In this document: positions 1,915 through 12,332 of the stretch, piece after piece
Position numbering within the stretch: the stretch's first letter is position 1
Layout of the letters: each line of letters starts with the position of its first letter
Origin: Paraspadella gotoi
Taxonomy: Eukaryota; Animalia; Chaetognatha
NCBI GenBank assembly: GCA_051294375.1
Contig: JBJCIZ010000930.1
Location: 1-12,332 of the forward strand
Length of the DNA stretch: 12,332 nt
Direction of reading: 5' to 3'
Program-made: the position numbers and the translations under genes
Notes under the pieces: generated by a model
Told to the model about the DNA's origin: nothing
Database searches by the model: none
What the model saw: only the letters and a program-made list of their open reading frames with translations

Positions 1915-2978
1915 ATGGCTCAGCCAATTCGCCAATCAGCACCGCGTTTTTTCCAACTGAATGTGCCGGGTAGCGGAACCACCGTAGTGACCTTTCACCC
2001 TATGGCAATAGGCCCGGCTTCAGCATGGATTGCCTTCGGCAGGCGTCGCAACGCCCCATCAGTTTATGCTATCCTCGAGTCGATGTCCTCCGACTCAATC
2101 GTACGCGAACTCCGTGCTTGGGCCGAGACAGGAGATATATCAGCCCTATCCCCTCCCCCTGGAACTGCCAACATGATATGGGATCTTCGCGCAGCAACCG
2201 GACGCCCTATTAGCATCGTGGACCGCGCAGAATGGAATACCGGGAGATCCATCAATCCAGGCCCGGATGCCATTGTCACCACCTTACAAAGTGGAATGTA
2301 CGCCGACCTCGAGGAAGCTCGACGCTCTCTCTCCGCTGCCCTTTCCCGCAGAGATAGGCCCGTACACCGAACATCAAGCGCCGACCGATCCGCTTCAACA
2401 AGGCCTTCTCCATTTCAACCCCCACCACGCGCGCTTGCCCCCCCCCCTCTGATGCCGTCGGGATCTCCGGCGAAGAATCCAGAGGTTAGGGTGGAATCAG
2501 AACCAAGAAACCCGAATCCAAGGAGAGAGATGCCAGATACAAAAGTGAAACAGAAACGCACGGGCAAACGTCTGGAAAGAAGTCAACAACGAATGCAGAA
2601 ATTTGTGCAAAAATTAAAAGAGAACACAGAGACCGAGTCGGCCTCAAACCCCCCATCGATCTCTACACTGGCCGATCCGCGGCCAATACCAATGGATCAG
2701 GATTCCAATCCCTTTAATCTACGACCTCTTCGACAATCCCCCCCAATTAAGTCTGGACATTCCGGCTCTTCCGACATACTCATATACAGACCTATCTCTA
2801 CGAAAAGCTGGTCTGAACAAGTAGAAGAAGCACACAAAGGAAACCAAAAGAAACGTGACATCGAGATCGATCACGACCCATCGACCGGAATTACCGGGCA
2901 TGTTCCTATGCATACGCCAAAAGCGACATCGACGCCGATTCGTGACACAACTTCGCCAATGAAGACGGGGGATCAGAG
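1915..2978 (+). CDS. Exon 1 of a predicted 668-aa protein of unknown function (candidate retroelement accessory protein)
   Basis: ATG in good context (cGaaATGG) at a sharp AT-rich to GC-balanced transition, then more than 1 kb of open frame. The first ~145 aa look globular; the rest is Pro/Ser/Arg-rich. Composition returns to AT-rich at the proposed donor AG|GTTTTT (2979). Confidence 0.75.
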
Positions 2979-3061
2979 GTTTTTTCTAAGCATGATAAAC
3001 AAACAGATATAAAAATAAATTTAGTTTTATCTTTGTGTATTAAAAATTATTATTTCTTTAG
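2979..3061 (+). other. Predicted 83-nt spliceosomal intron, phase 2
   Basis: GT at 2979-2980, AT-rich interior, TTATTTCTTTAG acceptor ending at 3061. Removal gives AG+G (Arg) followed by CGT GAA in the frame of ORF 3033-4004. The donor is a weak consensus match. Confidence 0.72.
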
Positions 3062-4004
3062 GCGTGAAATTCGTATTATCCCTAATAATGGACCGGAACC
3101 CGTGATCAACGTGACCCTCAAGGAGGTCCCGGAAGATTGGCTGGAGACAACTGTCAGCGAAAGACGAAAACGCGATTTCGGCTCCGAATCAGATTCAGGA
3201 GCAGAAAGCGAAGCTACATTGACGAATCAGACTGCTCCTCCCGCCCAAGTTCAACCATTGCAGTCAACCCCTATCGAAGCACCAATCAAATGGGGTCTAC
3301 CACCAGCAGAAAGGAAGGAGGCCCTCGATAAATATAACAAAGACCAGGAAGAACTTTTCAATTCCGGGAAGATGTCAAGGCGCGACAGGGAAAGGTGGCA
3401 GGACTATAAGGAGTGGATTAAGTCGCAAGAATCTGCCACGTTTAAAAGACCTCAACCCCTTCCGCCACGAAAGAAGAAGATGCCCCTTCCCCCTCACCGC
3501 GGACATCCGCAGTCATTTTCTTCCTCGATCGACGACAACAGATTCCGTTGTCGTGATGTGCGGGAGGAATTCCGTGCAACCGCCATCACTTTCGTCGAAA
3601 ATGCGTCGGAAAAACCAGACGCAAATCCCCAGCAAAATGAACCTGCGACCGTGGTGAGCGAGATTACGACCGCGGTTTCCCCAAACGTCGATGTAATTCC
3701 GACGGAATCTGCGGAGACCCCCGATATCCTCTTCCCTTCACACATATCGTCACCCAACTCTTCTTTCAATACGACAGCATCAACAATAAATATCGCGGAG
3801 TCATCGGCAGATCCAACTCTCCTTTCTTCCGCCAACGAGTCATTTGACTCTGCATGTTCGACTTGTACACAGCCGGCATACACGATGCCAGGATTGGAAA
3901 GAATCTCGTCGCTCCCTCTTTTGCATATAACTCCAGAACGGGAACGTGCCTTGCTCGGAGAGGACGAAAACGATGAAAGAATGGACGACGACGACGATCT
4001 GTGA
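3062..4004 (+). CDS. Exon 2 of the predicted 668-aa protein
   Basis: Open frame of 943 nt whose track start is only a TTG inside AT-rich sequence. Contains a charged, Trp-containing segment (KWGLPPAERKEALDKY...RWQDYKEWIK), basic clusters (RRKR, PRKKK), a Ser/Thr-rich region and an acidic tail (EDENDERMDDDDL). Confidence 0.75.
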
Positions 4005-4547
4005 GAGAGGTTCGACACGTCTTTTCTTTTTGGACCCGGACACGTTTAAGGACTCGAATTACGGAAAATGGACTCGCTTTTATATTTGGAACCATGACGG
4101 CTTTACAAGTTAAGATTGTACTCGCCAACAAACCCGCCGGTTCGAGCTCGAGCCATAGGGGATCCTAGACGGTCGGATTTCCGACTACCAGGATCCTTCT
4201 TGAAGATAAGGCCCCACTTGTAAAGCAGGTAGCTCGTTTTCTTTTTTCTCTATCATAAAGTCAGATGAACTGGTGACATTTTATTCAAATTCGTAAAACC
4301 GCGTCAACCCTTTTTTTTTTTTTTTCTTTTTTTCCTTTTTTACAATTGAAGATCTAATTGAAAACCACAGCAGTAGCGTTTACTTATATCGGAACTCCGA
4401 TGATTATTGCTGTCGGAATTCCGACGTTATAGTTTGAAAGAAAGACGCAGTTTTTTTTATTTTTGTAGGATGTATTCATGTTTATTAATTTTCTTTGTTA
4501 ATCATGTAACGAGATTCGAAATTGATATAGAACCTGTTAACTGTTAA

Positions 4548-4553
4548 AATAAA
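4548..4553 (+). promoter_or_regulatory. Possible polyadenylation signal for the spliced gene
   Basis: First AATAAA I see downstream of the stop at 4004, with T-rich sequence after it. Confidence 0.3.
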
Positions 4554-4736
4554 ACGATCATTAAATTTGATTATTGCGTTTACAGACGGGCCCTAAATAT
4601 TTTCATTAAGGTTAAGTTTATTTCTATTTCATTTTTCTATTTTCATTCCTTTACCCCCTCACCCCCTCATTTTTTTTTCCTCTTTTTCGATTTTTTTTTC
4701 TTTCCTTTTCCTCTCTCTCCTTTCTCATTTCATTTA

Positions 4737-4795
4737 TTTTTTTTTTTTTTTTTCTTTTTTCTTTCTTTCTTTCTTCTTCTTCTTCTTCTTCTTCT
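4737..4795. repeat. Poly-T grading into a (TTC)n microsatellite
   Basis: Directly visible. Other poly-T tracts lie at about 1680-1697 and 4311-4341. Confidence 0.9.
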
Positions 4796-4874
4796 CATTT
4801 TCAATTTTTTCACCTCCTCTTGCATCATCTTTCCCGATCAAGGGCAAACTTAGCCGCTTTCCCTTTGGGAAATC

Positions 4875-4900
4875 GGGTGGGGGTGATGAGAGATGGCACT
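4875..4900 (+). other. Candidate polypurine tract and start of 3' LTR
   Basis: GGGTGGGGGTGA (4875-4886) followed by TGAGAGATGGCACT. It is an isolated G-run after a long pyrimidine-rich tract and is followed by TG. The other LTR copy is outside the window, so the LTR end cannot be placed. Confidence 0.42.
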
Positions 4901-5127
4901 TATTTTTCTCATTTTACATCATTAAGAGAGAGATTTCAATATCTCATATCCGTTCATGAAACAACGTGGAGGAAGGAAGATTTGTATGAGTCGGTCCGTC
5001 TGTCCCATCTGCGCTTACAGTTTCCCTACTGTTCCCTTACTCTTACTCGTTCTTGGAATTCAAATTAATAATTTTATGGCTTAGGCATCGACTCTCTTAT
5101 TGAGTAATTAAAAAAAGGAAGTCGAAA

Positions 5128-5177
<50 letters not shown>

Positions 5178-5226
5178 GAGAGAGAGAGGAGAGAGAGAGA
5201 AGAGAGAGAGGGAGAGAGAAGAGAGA
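5128..5226. repeat. Interrupted (GA)n microsatellite
   Basis: Directly visible, about 100 bp. Confidence 0.97.
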
Positions 5227-5875
5227 ATGGGAATGAATATTATGCAAAGGGGGGCGTCGTCGTAAGCAAAGGAATGAGACTGAGTGACGCTTCTTGGCTT
5301 TCACCTTGCTGTCAACTATTGACTGTCGCTTGTCTTTTCTCGAACGTTGACTGTCGACCCGACTTGAGATCTTTAACATCTTTTCCCCTTTTCAGTTTCG
5401 GATCCCGATTGCGGAAGAATCCTCGATCGTTTTTAAAATCAATCTGTCCGCTCGAACAATCGCGCCTTCGAAATTACTCGCTCAAGATTTTTTTTCTTTT
5501 TTTCCGGCCCTAATCCTAGTTCTTTTTTTCCCCCTTTTTCACAGAAGGTCTTACCGAACACTCCCTGCCGGCTTCACTCTTGCGAGGGCGATGGGTTTCT
5601 GCTTCGGCAACGACAACGAACAACACCACAACGACCACGACCAAAACGACATTCAAATTCGATGCAGTGTCCAAAGGTGCAGCGGGACATCTATCCTAGG
5701 AAATTAAACTGCGTCGTCGAGTCGTTTGTCGGTAGTCGTCGTTCTTTATTGTTTCTTATCGTTTGTTAAATTATTTTTTTCCCCATCCTAAAAATCAATG
5801 TTAATCATTAAATTTTGGTGATAAAAAATATAAATCCAATTATAAGTTGGAGAGACATGGTACACAACGAGATGG

Positions 5876-5904
5876 TAATTAATTAATTAATTAATTAATT
5901 AATA
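5876..5904. repeat. (TAAT)n microsatellite, self-complementary
   Basis: About 7 tandem TAAT units directly after GATG|G. Confidence 0.93.
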
Positions 5905-6424
5905 TTGATTAATTTAAAAACGATTTGTATTAACTTATTCAACAAATTAATAAAGGAACGGCCTGCGTCTGCAAACTTTCTCTCCGACCAGCGCCGCTGA
6001 CTGACCCGCGCCCCCGCGTCGACGGTGTTTCATCATCGCACTCCCGACGGCTGGTCTCCATCCATGGCTCCGACGCATGTCGAGAAGACGAAAACGTCTT
6101 CGCGACGCCGGCGGCCGGCCGCGGGCTGATCGTACGGTGCGGCGCTGACTGCTACGCCCGCTGCGCGCCACAACGCTGGCGCTTTATCGACGTGGAACGC
6201 GCCGGACCTCGAATACCTTTCAAAAAATTTTAATCATCCTCTGGGCGGATTTCGATCGAACGGGGGAAGAGATGGGGGGGGAAATGGTGGAGGAGATGGC
6301 GGAGGAGATTGCGGAGAAATGGGGGAGAAGATGGGGGAGAGATGGGAGAAGAATATAGGAATGAGACGAGAGAGGAATTCAAGAAACTCTACAGAAAACG
6401 GAGGAGAAGAAAAGATAGGAGAGG

Positions 6425-6810
6425 AAAAGGAATCGAGGGCGACCGGGAAGAGATGATAAGAGAAAAAAAGGGAAAGACGTGAAGTGAGATGGAAATGAGA
6501 CCAAAGTAGATGGAAAGAAGAGGAATGAGAATTGGAAGAGGGAGATGGGAGAGGAAGGATTCTTGAGGGCGACTGGAAAGAAGATGATAAAGGAAAAAAA
6601 AGGGATAAAGACGTGAGTGCAGAATGGGAAATGGAGACTCGAGTGAGATGGAAAGATAGAGGAGGCGAAAGGAAAAAGGGAATGGGAGAAGAAAGGATCT
6701 CGAGGGCGACCTGGGAAGAGATGATAAAGGGAAAAAAGGGAAAAGAACGTGGAGGGAGATGGGAAATAAACTCGAAGTGAAGATGGGAGAGGAGAAGGAG
6801 AAGAGAAGAA
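6425..6810. repeat. Degenerate tandem repeat, three copies of a ~130-137 bp purine-rich unit
   Basis: The anchor GAGGGCGAC occurs at 6435, 6565 and 6702. Each is followed by AGATGATAA, an A-run plus GGGA, ACGTG and ATGG(G)AAAT. Confidence 0.88.
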
Positions 6811-6889
6811 AAAATGATAGAAGGAATTCAAGTGACGAAAGAGAGAAGGAAGAGAGAGGAGAATTGACGATAGATTTTAGGACGAAACG

Positions 6890-7460
6890 ATTGAATTATA
6901 GATTTAAAGAACAAACGGAGAAGAATGAGGGAGGAAGAAGTAAGAGAAATGAAGAATGAAACCGTTAGGAGTATGAGAATTGAATTAAAGAGGATTTAAA
7001 GAACAAGGACGGTTAAATAACAAGAAAAATGAATTCCCAGAGGATTTGTAAGAAATAAGACAGAAAGAGAAAAGAGCGAAAATTAAGCAGTTTTAAGATG
7101 AAACGATGAAGAAAATGAAAGGAGGATCAAGAGGGATTCAAACGAACAAAAACGGTAAAAGAGATGAGAGGAAAATTGAATAGATGACTTAAGATGATAC
7201 AGCGAGGATATGGGAAGAGACAAGAATGAAACGAACGATACCAAAAGAGATGAAGACAGAGAATCACAAAAGGATTTAAAGAACGAACATTGATTGTTAG
7301 GGGAAGTAGAATTTACAGAGAATTTGCAGGAACGAGAATTAGAGGAGATCGACGCAAGATATTTAAAAGAACGAAAACTTTAAACACAGAGTATTCCAAG
7401 AACGAAATTAGAAAAAGATTTACGGAGGATTTAAAGAACGAAAACGACGAAGGAACGAAA
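6890..7460. repeat. Degenerate purine-rich minisatellite with a GATTTAAAGAAC core, spacing roughly 45 or 90 bp
   Basis: GATTTAAAGAAC at about 6901, 6993, 7273 and 7428, with variants at about 7043, 7135, 7320 and 7361. Confidence 0.7.
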
Positions 7461-8654
7461 AGAAACTTGACATCGGTCGGTGAAACGAGACGCTTGGGAA
7501 ACGCGACGACGCGAACGAGATGGTGAAAGAGGAGTAACTCGACGCCGGCGCCGGCGTCGCCACAAAAACCGCGCCTAGACGCCTGTCGGATGACGCTGAG
7601 ACAGGAACACGCCCACCCGACCTCCGCTGAGAATCACAGGCTTCAACCTCGTCAATTTGGGAACAAAATGAAGACGAGGACGCGATTTGGAACCGAGCTC
7701 GACTCATGCGCCACTTTTGGTGGCGAGAAGACGAAGAACCATGGACTTGGAGAGATTCGTCGCGAGATGAGGCTGAAGATCGTCAAGGAGAATGAGGATC
7801 GGAGACGTTATGGGATTTCCCGATTTCCATTTTCTTTGTTTCACAATGTTGATGAATTGAATTTTTATTGAATTAAAAATATTCCGAGTTTCATTTTGAA
7901 ATTAAATAGACAATACTGGAGCAATAAACCTAAATAAGGGAGCTATCTTAGAAATACCAAGCTGACGGAAATGTTTTTAATTTGCCGAACTATTTTAAAA
8001 ACCAAAAATCCCATTCAAAGACCGAAATTAATTTAAAAATGAACCACGTTCTTCCTCAGATTCATGTCCATCAACTCACAACGACTCGGCCCACTGGCTG
8101 TTTGCAGCGGCTGCAAAACAAAACTTTGCATAGGAAAACTCTACGGAATTATGCTCTTCTTATCTCTTCTTACTTATCAAGTTTTTTTACATGGTCAATC
8201 CTCACATTCCAGTGAGGAGAAATGTCAATTACAAATTTACCAAAATGAAACATTATGATTATCCTTGATTTTTAATAAACTATGGTGGTGGGTTAAAAAC
8301 TTCATAACATAATAATCAGGATCCTTAAAGCATTCAATCAAGACTAGTTTTAATACAAGACTAGCTTTATTAATCGATCTAATTTTAATATCACCCCAGA
8401 GTACTACTGGCTTCCTATTATTTAGTTGTCAAACAAAACTTACTGAGTACTTAACTGCGTACGACTTGGCCATTAATTATTCACGGTTTTCAGCTCTACT
8501 GTTTGACGTTATTTTGGAACAGGAACACATTCTTCAAGGATTCAACGTCCATTTACGGGCCCTTATTTAACGAAGACAACGGGGTGGATCTCCCTCCTTT
8601 CGTTTCCCATTTCAAACTCATTTGCGAATACTCGGGCACACCAAACAGGTTGAA

Positions 8655-8665
8655 AGAGGGAGAAG

Positions 8666-8734
<69 letters not shown>
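8655..8734. repeat. Interrupted (GA)n microsatellite
   Basis: Directly visible. Confidence 0.97.
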
Positions 8735-9075
8735 TTATTTAAACCTTGATGATGTCGTTCTGTATCAAACTTGATATGAAATAAACTTTTGTCAGTCTCA
8801 TTTAGGACTCTTAGACCCTCAGGTTAGCTTACATCGGCGGAAGCGATACACAGAGTCGACACAGGCCTTTTACGTATGTAACGAAAGACCGTCGAATCCG
8901 AAAAAAAAAACAAACCCAAAAAACAAAAAGACGAAAGATTTTTTTTCGCCAAAAGTCTCGCTCTGGCGACCAGCGGGTTGAAGGGGTCCTAACCCATAAA
9001 ACCGGACTTTGAATCTGTTCGGCCGCGCTCGCGGCAAAGAAAGAAACAAGTCCCTTCCGCCCGCGCGCGTGAAAT

Positions 9076-9105
9076 GAGAGAGAGAGAGAGAGAGAGATAA
9101 GAGAG

Positions 9106-9153
<48 letters not shown>

Positions 9154-9154
9154 A
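9076..9154. repeat. Interrupted (GA)n microsatellite
   Basis: Directly visible, flanked on both sides by CpG-rich sequence. Confidence 0.97.
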
Positions 9155-9339
9155 TACGCGTTCGTGGCCGGAAACGACCGGCCGCATTCCGCGATCGGCG
9201 AAAGTGAACTTTGTGACGCGTGGGCCGACGCCGAGCTTGCGAACGCTTGCCGAAGCTGGCGCGACGCTTGCCGGACCTTTGCGCCGACGCTGCCTACGCC
9301 GAACTCGATGGCTTCGAGACAATGAATAATTTCAGAGTC

Positions 9340-10802: not shown

Positions 10803-10849
10803 CTGAAAATAATTTTTGATCTGTTATTTTAAAAAAAATGTAAACTTAC
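10803..10849 (-). other. Candidate 47-nt intron on the minus strand
   Basis: The minus strand reads ATG|GTAAGT...AT-rich...ATTTTCAG, a full match to both splice consensus sequences. Confidence 0.4.
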
Positions 10850-11309
10850 CATTTCAAAATTTACATCTCTTTGAGTCTTTTCTTCTTTCGTTTGTCTTTT
10901 CAACCTTAGCCGGGCAAATCTACCTAAAACTGAACAATCCCCCGAAAAAGAAGTGGATCTAGAACGGGCACGCCCACCTTCTCGCAACGATACGGGCGCC
11001 CCACTAAACGGGCGCCAAGCTCCATCCCGCGACGTCCCCTCCTCCTCCGGACGGGCGCCAACGCATCGTGACGCCGGGAGAGGCAACCACCCATGTCCAC
11101 CTTGCGTGACAATCTCTTCGCGAGACGCTCAGTCAGCGCATGCAACGCCCTAAACCGGGGGTTCGGCGGCGGCGGCGGCGTACTCGGCGGGCAAAACTGT
11201 AAGCCAACTCCGGGCAGCAAAAACAACGAAGCCACCACAGCAGCCCGCGCAGCGTGTGCAACAACGCCGCACGCGGCGGCAGCATGCAGCGCGGAGGCAG
11301 CGAACTAAT

Positions 11310-11336
11310 GGCGGCGGCGGCGGCGGCGGAGGTGGA
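11310..11336. repeat. (GGC)n trinucleotide repeat, with a second shorter run at about 11165-11179
   Basis: Directly visible. Confidence 0.9.
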
Positions 11337-12332
11337 AGCAGTCCGTTCATTGGTTCATCATCGGTGAAGCGAACCGCGGCAAGGTCGGCAACTTGAAACC
11401 GACGGCCACCTGCGCCGCCCCGGAAAAGATCCCCCCCGTTGTTTTTTGATGAGGAGAGTTCGTGGCGCGTCCTCTGAGATCGGGAACACACTTTCGACAA
11501 GATACCACTTCTCCCTTTTCTTTCCCCCCTCACCGCTTTTTTCATAAAAAGAAAAATAAAATCGACCCCGTCGCAACCGAGTACCCGTTTTTTTTTTCCG
11601 ATGATTTCGTTGTATTATCAACAAAACCTATTTTTGGGTTTTGGTCACGAACTTCATCATATTTTTTCGCTAGTTTACTATCAGTAGTTACAAAATCTCC
11701 AAAAGAAAACCGCGAATTCGTTCTTTGCTTATAAATTAATTGTTACACCTTGTGATGAAATATATCACTTTCTACTTAGACGAAAAAAAAAAATCAAATT
11801 TATCTTTATAATGTCACGGAATGGTACCGAACCTGGATCCCGTTGACGCCTCCTTGTTTCCGACCCGTCAAGGCCGGTACTGGGTGAGAACCCTGTCTCT
11901 CTCTTCGTCTTCGTCGAGAGGGAGGTAGGCCGCGGTTGTTTTCCGACGCCTCTCCGAACCGTCGTGACCTCCTGCACCCCGTGATGGCGTTGCTGAAGTT
12001 CCGGAGTGGTCGAAGTGAAGGAGGTGCCACCACCCTGTGACGCCGTCTTCAGTGTCCCGGGCCCATTGCGACGAAGAGACTGATAGGTCTTTATGGTCTC
12101 TAGGGAATAGGCGCTATGGCCTTAATCTCGCGTCATCTACGAAAGTTGTGACAAGGTACGTGTTTTGAGTAACAGGGCCTCATAGCCGGTAAAAAGGCAG
12201 TTTAGAGACGGGTCCTGATATATATAACACTACTCATGTATCTCATAAAGGTAATGACAACAACAATGTAAGTAATAAAAGCCAGACCTAAAAGGTCAAG
12301 AAAAGATCAAATGAACCAATGAAAGGTGCAAT

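Follow-up and report, generated by a model that had tools for sequence, protein, structure and literature searches.

The window, as we call the whole 12,332-nt stretch of Paraspadella gotoi DNA that was analyzed, probably contains a real accessory gene at positions 1915-4004 of the forward strand, lying inside a BEL/Pao retrotransposon in the slot that env occupies in other elements. Granted that the gene is real, it is reasonably likely that its product is a nuclear regulator of some kind. The fullest explanation that we can offer, towards which we lean slightly, is that of an intron-split accessory gene for a disordered nuclear protein that aids the survival or export of unspliced genomic RNA. 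A role specifically in RNA export or splicing control, resembling that of CERV or Rev, is our best single guess at the function, drawn by analogy and tentative.

The window begins within pol. An ORF at positions 3-1583 of the forward strand, open at its 5' end and free of stops until the TAG at 1581-1583, encodes the 526-aa 3' end of pol, namely an integrase with a zinc-binding domain, a core and a DUF5641 C-terminal domain. Integrase is the last pol domain, which is consistent with the BEL/Pao order (PR-RT-RH-IN, with gag 5' of it). A Pfam search matched the ORF to PF17921 (E 2.6e-12) and PF18701 (E 5.9e-21), and 311 homologues were found, with a top identity of 45%; those that are sufficiently long contain PF05380, which we take to be the Pao peptidase family. 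The upstream ORF is thus a BEL/Pao pol, as stated in the original prediction, and belongs to the Belpaoviridae, with the integrase end alone being inside the window. BEL/Pao elements have paired LTRs of 0.2-1.2 kb, with a PPT (polypurine tract) of about 10 nt 5' of the 3' LTR; the 5' end of the element lies outside the window, and no second LTR was found within it. For placement among the named BEL/Pao superfamilies Pao, BEL, Tas, Suzu, Sinbad/Sailor, Dan and Flow, a motif search of the PMC3118150 supplements gave no usable lead.

Contigs of run X1 are identical to portions of pol and of both exons of the accessory gene. The RNA nature of these contigs is only a guess and they may be the window's own source, so the run is mute on expression and splicing. 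X1 also holds pol contigs that are about 88-91% identical to the window (with mismatches at 35 of 371, 23 of 218 and 77 of 656 positions). Of the 123 differences, 40 are listed, and 34 of these fall in third codon positions; the run thus contains a sister family that is under selection.

Between the pol stop and the ATG at 1915-1917 lies an AT-rich spacer of 331 nt (1584-1914, 28% GC). A pattern search of the spacer found no sequence resembling a polypurine tract (PPT), in agreement with the earlier claim that no PPT separates pol from the extra gene. The spacer contains a pyrimidine tract (1637-1697), a candidate branch point (CTAAT, 1857-1861) and, 27 nt 5' of the ATG, a candidate splice acceptor (AG, 1886-1887) that might serve a subgenomic mRNA. 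This acceptor is the best among just four AGs in the gap, which does not amount to a significant test, and the pattern of an acceptor before the ATG is likewise not significant (AGs without an ATG before the start are 2 of 4, 11 of 17 and 3 of 14). The ATG itself has a strong context, with A at -3 and G at +4. A purine at -3 together with G at +4 was found in all five extra ORFs examined, as compared to 10 of 72 other ATGs, where it should be considered that each of the five start codons had been selected for being the first ATG, or a conserved one, in a long ORF.

The gene is read from two ORFs on the same strand. The frame of the ATG at 1915 is open to 3009 and a second frame is open from 2946 to the TGA at 4002-4004, the two overlapping at 2946-3009. 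When the region was simulated 3000 times with an order-2 Markov model, a pair of ORFs on one strand, each with 313 aa or more, came up in 0.1% of cases. According to the original prediction, removal of an 83-nt, AT-rich GT-AG segment fuses the two ORFs, and its coordinates are correct: GT is found at 2979-2980 and AG at 3060-3061, the frames of exon 1 (1915-2978) and exon 2 (3062-4004) are both stop-free, and the exons sum to 1064 + 943 = 2007 nt. The predicted phase-2 intron (2979-3061) ends with a T-rich tract and TTTAG. Its GC content is 0.17, as compared to 0.535 for exon 1 and 0.507 for exon 2, and the next-lowest 83-nt window within 1915-4004 has a GC content of 0.36. Indeed, a maximum-likelihood search for a low-GC segment, based on composition and using no splice signals, placed its edges at 2980 and 3060. 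The case for the intron rests on composition, as 26 other GT-AG pairs of up to 300 nt would also restore the frame.

One should also consider that there may be no intron, in which case the AT-rich segment would be either coding sequence or an insertion. Ribosomal frameshifting would then join the frames overlapping at 2946-3009, unless these were split by mutation or assembly error. The donor (AG/GTTTTT) is weak beyond the GT, the gene of the nearest readable relative (L001, described below) is one continuous ORF, and the exon 2 frame has no stop from 2946 on through the AT-rich segment, as occurs in 6% of 20,000 shuffles (14% if any frame is allowed). Read in the exon 2 frame, the segment has a codon-usage score no worse than that of the exons. 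This possibility is, however, opposed by the course of the GC content, which passes from 54% to 17% and back to 51% with the changes falling exactly at GT and AG. A weak additional argument against it is an X1 contig that is identical to window positions 2813-2994 without a gap, as this contig ends 16 nt into the segment and X1 is perhaps the window's source. For the latter reason, it is neutral that no X1 contig contains the 2978/3062 joint and that one contig, spanning 3015-3383, crosses the acceptor unspliced. Two further runs, X2 and X3, gave nothing that could be placed on the window. We consider the absence of an intron to be improbable, and it is quite likely that the intron is spliced.

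The predicted spliced product is a protein of 668 aa that ends at the TGA. The part encoded by exon 1 starts with about 130 residues that are predicted to be ordered, followed by Pro/Ser/Arg-rich disorder, and includes a basic patch at residues 210-229. Exon 2 encodes, in this order, an acidic/Ser linker, a predicted charged two-helix hairpin, a basic Pro-rich patch with a Lys/Arg cluster, Ser/Thr-rich disorder and an acidic tail. The predicted hairpin (about nt 3303-3434) comprises exon 2 residues 81-101 and 106-124, modeled by single-sequence AlphaFold2 with a block pLDDT of 77-90. The model of the first 146 aa of exon 2 has a pLDDT of 62, while that of the N-terminal 162 aa has a pLDDT of 41 and is unreliable. 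When the exon 2 model was compared to the PDB with Foldseek, the best E value was 3.8; the models are too poor to classify. No DNA-binding or chromatin-reader domain was found in the window protein using Pfam, the PDB and Foldseek.

The window protein is not an Env. It shows neither the signal peptide and C-terminal transmembrane anchor nor the Cys-bonded, fusogen-like ectodomain that were looked for. As judged by a hydropathy measure only, it has no transmembrane or signal-like stretch, the top 19-residue values being 1.18 and 0.85, and thus the claim that no signal peptide or transmembrane helix is evident was confirmed. The non-Env character that had been assigned to the gene was upheld as well, given this lack of a hydrophobic segment, the presence of only three Cys in the 667 residues read (none in exon 1 and three in exon 2) and the absence of any fusogen match in Pfam or the PDB. 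Exon 1, moreover, has no N-glycosylation motif. It could still be argued that the gene is a decayed or unrecognizable env, considering its position, or a chance pair of GC-rich ORFs, as low-complexity GC-rich DNA favors long ORFs. The protein features just listed and the rarity of such a pair in the simulations largely exclude both, and we consider this explanation highly improbable.

Homologue searches, in which exon 1 and exon 2 were taken as separate pieces, placed the protein in no known family. Exon 1 yielded 0 matches among 1.84 billion representatives and none among viral and metagenome contigs, exon 2 yielded no match in a 5.8-billion collection (lengths 172-548) or among viral contigs, and neither exon had a relative in Pfam or among PDB sequences. 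Likewise, no match of the window protein to CERV or Rev was obtained via Pfam, the PDB and the 1.84 billion representatives, where it should be noted that CERV itself is not among the compared sequences. A second copy of the window gene was not found.

Downstream of the gene, a non-coding stretch (4005-4874, forward strand) that is T-rich towards its end may represent a 3' UTR inside the element. It leads to a G-rich candidate PPT (4875-4883), detected by pattern search, with TG next to it at 4884, and to a weak candidate 3' LTR of 1152 nt (4884-6035) that has 6-nt inverted ends; such an end match at 1152 nt is expected about once in four by chance, a value that was estimated rather than computed. 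The first PPT-like pattern 3' of pol is at 4879, 875 nt past the gene stop. This accords with the expectation that a PPT-like tract appears only some 870 bp after the gene, although the pattern is found at chance level (1 seen, as compared to 2.2 expected for a simulated stretch of the same make-up). X1 contigs cover 3807-4303, which includes the end of the gene, and 4452-4635, and none covers 4781-5100. At 4229-4468, donor-like and acceptor-like sites are found 240 nt apart, which could reflect a 3' UTR intron or chance. Three long GA microsatellites are located at 5124-5227 (within the weak LTR candidate), 8652-8730 and 9075-9156. Positions 6240-7460 are strongly purine-rich and include diverged tandem units of about 130-137 nt (6413-6802, 77% identity), and a perfect 20-nt GC-rich palindrome is found at 7540-7559 within a GC-rich island. 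On the minus strand, several ORFs of 99-154 aa that are GC-rich and Pro/Ala-rich overlap one another (10829-11614); no Pfam match was obtained for them. Finally, a 342-nt segment at 11812-12153 with perfect 6-nt inverted ends (TG...CA) resembles a solo LTR of another element; no target-site duplication was found in its flanks.

The gene might alternatively belong to the host, or to another mobile element, and simply adjoin a BEL/Pao copy that was cut off after pol. Introns are ordinary in host genes, the LTR is only a weak candidate in a window that is a patchwork of repeats, and no homologue ties the gene to retroelements. In addition, one X1 pol contig (about 88% identical) departs from the window at 1579, at the pol end, with 56 unlike letters. 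Such a departure can be read either way, as it fits a diverged spacer and equally fits a relative without the gene. However, pol is intact to its natural stop, and a conserved host gene would more likely have found a match among the 1.84 billion representatives. The spacing, start context and protein make-up match those of L001 and L002, two loci of the same pol clade. A host or foreign gene is thus quite unlikely, and we continue to prefer a gene carried inside the element.

The clade was defined by a pol tree of 76 sequences. For this tree, 80 metagenome loci were retrieved by means of a pol alignment (the best 80 of 214 confirmed), loci with fewer than 300 aligned residues or with stops were left out, and 23 proteins from the homologue search were considered. 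Three loci from pol scans of viral and prokaryote genome contigs are outside the analysis. The window pol sits on a long branch in a 14-member clade together with L001, L002 and P0001-P0011, with a FastTree support of 1.0 and an SH-aLRT of 100 in a 39-sequence subset. The clade consists of unnamed records only, and the tree includes no named reference elements. Downstream DNA is readable in two of the 13 other clade members, L001 and L002, and both have a sense, non-Env ORF in the slot, starting 358 and 249 nt, respectively, after the pol stop. An extra non-Env gene after pol is apparently a trait of the clade, being present in all three readable members.

The L001 extra protein has 612 aa and is disordered and basic, with an acidic tail. 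Its gene is intronless, and a G8 PPT-like tract is located about 150 nt past the ORF. The protein cluster has 33 members, the full-length ones being found on contigs of up to 8.1 kb, and a sister family shows 56% identity across the whole length. Among the four full-length L001 family members listed, differences cluster in the 135 codons 5' of the ATG in five of six pairs (e.g., 23 of 135 upstream of the ATG versus 2 of 612 in the protein), with the remaining pair showing no difference, and in the sister family, the same upstream concentration is seen in two of three pairs; these counts serve as an amino-acid proxy for selection and are not dN/dS. The distribution of differences points to selection acting on the L001 protein. 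In both families, the ORF (L001:2513-4807) also continues without a stop for about 150 codons 5' of the conserved ATG, where it overlaps the end of pol, and this part varies much faster. The last 25 residues of the protein are near-invariant between the families and include a Trp-acid-acid-Ile word, which, we presume, resembles the autophagy LIR motif.

The L002 extra ORF (L002:2573-2715) opens with Arg-Ser repeats, comprising 15 RS/SR pairs in 47 readable residues, and is thus SR-protein-like. Such repeats are typical of splicing and export adaptors. The contig stops after these 47 codons, and an acceptor-like site is found 39 nt 5' of the ORF.

When the window and L001 extra proteins were compared, BLASTP gave E values of 0.73 and 0.36 and hhalign a probability of 0.3%. 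A shuffle test of exon 1 against L001 gave a p of 0.015, which is probably compositional, and a short Asn-x-Gly-Pro match between the two was rejected as not significant. No homology between the two genes was thus detected; they have slot and protein style in common, while common descent and function are unproved.

The wider set of loci was considered as well. Of 37 loci whose sequence extends for 400 nt or more past the pol stop, 25 have a PPT-like pattern no further than 310 nt from this stop. Among the other 12, an ORF of 150 aa or longer that starts with ATG occurs in four (L001, L050, L052 and L061). L061, from another branch, is a circularly permuted whole BEL/Pao element with a 188-nt end overlap, and its 159-aa Arg/Ser/Pro-rich ORF between pol and the PPT (L061:1769-2248) therefore lies inside the element. 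The distance from the PPT to the gag ATG in L061 is only about 330 nt. L050 (5506-6255) and L052, both BEL/Pao and near a Daphnia-annotated pol, contain a 249-aa post-pol ORF with Cys/His knuckle-like motifs; no Pfam match was found for this ORF.

We propose the following mechanism. A subgenomic mRNA would be spliced from the 5' leader to the acceptor near 1887, and removal of the 83-nt intron would then allow translation of the 668-aa protein. The full-length RNA would keep both introns, be packaged and be reverse transcribed, and the intron would persist in the DNA because this unspliced RNA is the form that is copied. An element with internal splice sites needs a route for the export of unspliced RNA, which CERV provides in Cer1. 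The protein, with its basic patches, charged helical hairpin and acidic tail, may bind the element RNA or host RNA-processing factors, as CERV does for Cer1. A CERV-like role is suited by a disordered basic protein and by the RS-repeat version in L002. The original prediction of an accessory protein carried inside the element is strengthened by the extra ORFs in the slot of L001 and L002. The nuclear export signal patterns are at chance level (present in 41-81% of shuffles) and lend no support to the export role. The notion that a kept intron implies regulation like that of complex retroviruses is reasonable but not new, considering CERV of Cer1 (PMC10309623). Moreover, L001, the nearest readable relative, has no intron in its gene, which shows that the intron does not occur throughout the clade.

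The accessory gene could also perform another job, such as anti-silencing (chromatin or piRNA counter-defense) or LTR transactivation via the acidic tail. Divergence is fast between families whose pols are 42-50% identical, as would be expected if the protein were at odds with the host, acidic C-terminal tails are found in both the window and L001 families, and the basic patches could bind either DNA or RNA. Against such a job, no DNA-binding or chromatin-reader domain was found in the searches described above, and the Arg-Ser repeats with which the L002 ORF opens rather suggest a part in RNA processing. We regard these other functions as unlikely. A broader generalization of the export reading, which we consider doubtful, is that this deep unnamed BEL/Pao clade is 'complex', every member having a long, fast-evolving, disordered nuclear regulator after pol, made from a spliced mRNA and controlling the splicing or export of its own genomic RNA. 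The regulator would then be of an RS-repeat type in one family and intron-split in the window family, and would represent an independent solution in Belpaoviridae to the problem met by Rev and CERV.

Third genes are known in Belpaoviridae. The env-like genes of roo (F-type), Tas (gB-like) and nematode Atlas (phlebovirus Gc-like) and those for Chuviridae-like glycoproteins in mosquitoes (PMC8742986; accessible parts of PMC13524379 and 10.1101/2021.11.23.469668) share the element family and the post-pol position with the window gene. These encode membrane glycoproteins, whereas the window protein lacks a hydrophobic segment, is nearly free of Cys and was matched to no fusogen. The ICTV profile of BEL/Pao lists the env-like gene as the only third gene and describes replication as poorly understood (PMC8742986), and the Atlas preprint notes that ORFs overlap in belpaoviruses of C. 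elegans (10.1101/2021.11.23.469668). Among other LTR elements, the ORF3s of the bdelloid rotifer Juno, Vesta and TelKA encode GDSL esterases, DEDDy exonucleases, coiled-coil or membrane proteins (PMC5408684, in part), and plant Retand elements carry extra ORFs in antisense (PMC11963269, in part). Neither corresponds to an intron-split disordered protein in BEL/Pao, unlike the window gene. Drosophila MDG1-group elements have the accessory non-Env genes sORF1 and sORF2, of which sORF1 was seen in nuclei; these are short and mostly 5' of gag, with sORF2 being transmembrane and fusogen-like, whereas the window gene is long and post-pol (10.1101/2025.03.14.642691, in part). In the literature compared, which also included parts of PMC3118150, PMC2996953, PMC7998251, PMC2678813 and PMC8556966, an intron-split non-Env gene after pol in BEL/Pao was not found described. 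Repbase and GyDB are outside this scope and could bear on novelty, and nematode Cer reports (Bowen and McDonald 1999, Ganko 2001) may describe extra BEL/Pao ORFs.

By analogy, the closest precedent is CERV of Cer1, a Ty3/gypsy element of Caenorhabditis elegans, which is a spliced non-Env gene in the env slot that is needed for nuclear export of genomic RNA, according to PMC10309623. In the same source, cerv shares 5' exons with gag and has its 3' part in the polyprotein frame, whereas the window gene starts at an ATG of its own past the pol stop. CERV is predicted to have three folded domains and has a Cys loop, whereas the window protein is mostly disordered. Furthermore, the window element is BEL/Pao, with an intron wholly within the post-pol ORF; CERV was compared here by description, not by sequence. 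Of the features considered in comparing the window protein to CERV and Rev, basic patches are present and export-signal patterns are at chance. Extra non-Env ORFs in LTR elements, including a spliced one in the env slot, are thus already known. What is apparently new is the occurrence in BEL/Pao, the intron inside a post-pol ORF, the orphan protein and the trait of an unnamed clade. If our explanation is true, accessory genes with a regulatory role exist in BEL/Pao, and these elements face the need to export unspliced RNA; as these proteins have no detectable relatives, any function found would define a new protein family. The window element would also offer a third lineage, after retroviruses and Cer1, in which to test how an intron can survive in an LTR element although reverse transcription should remove it.
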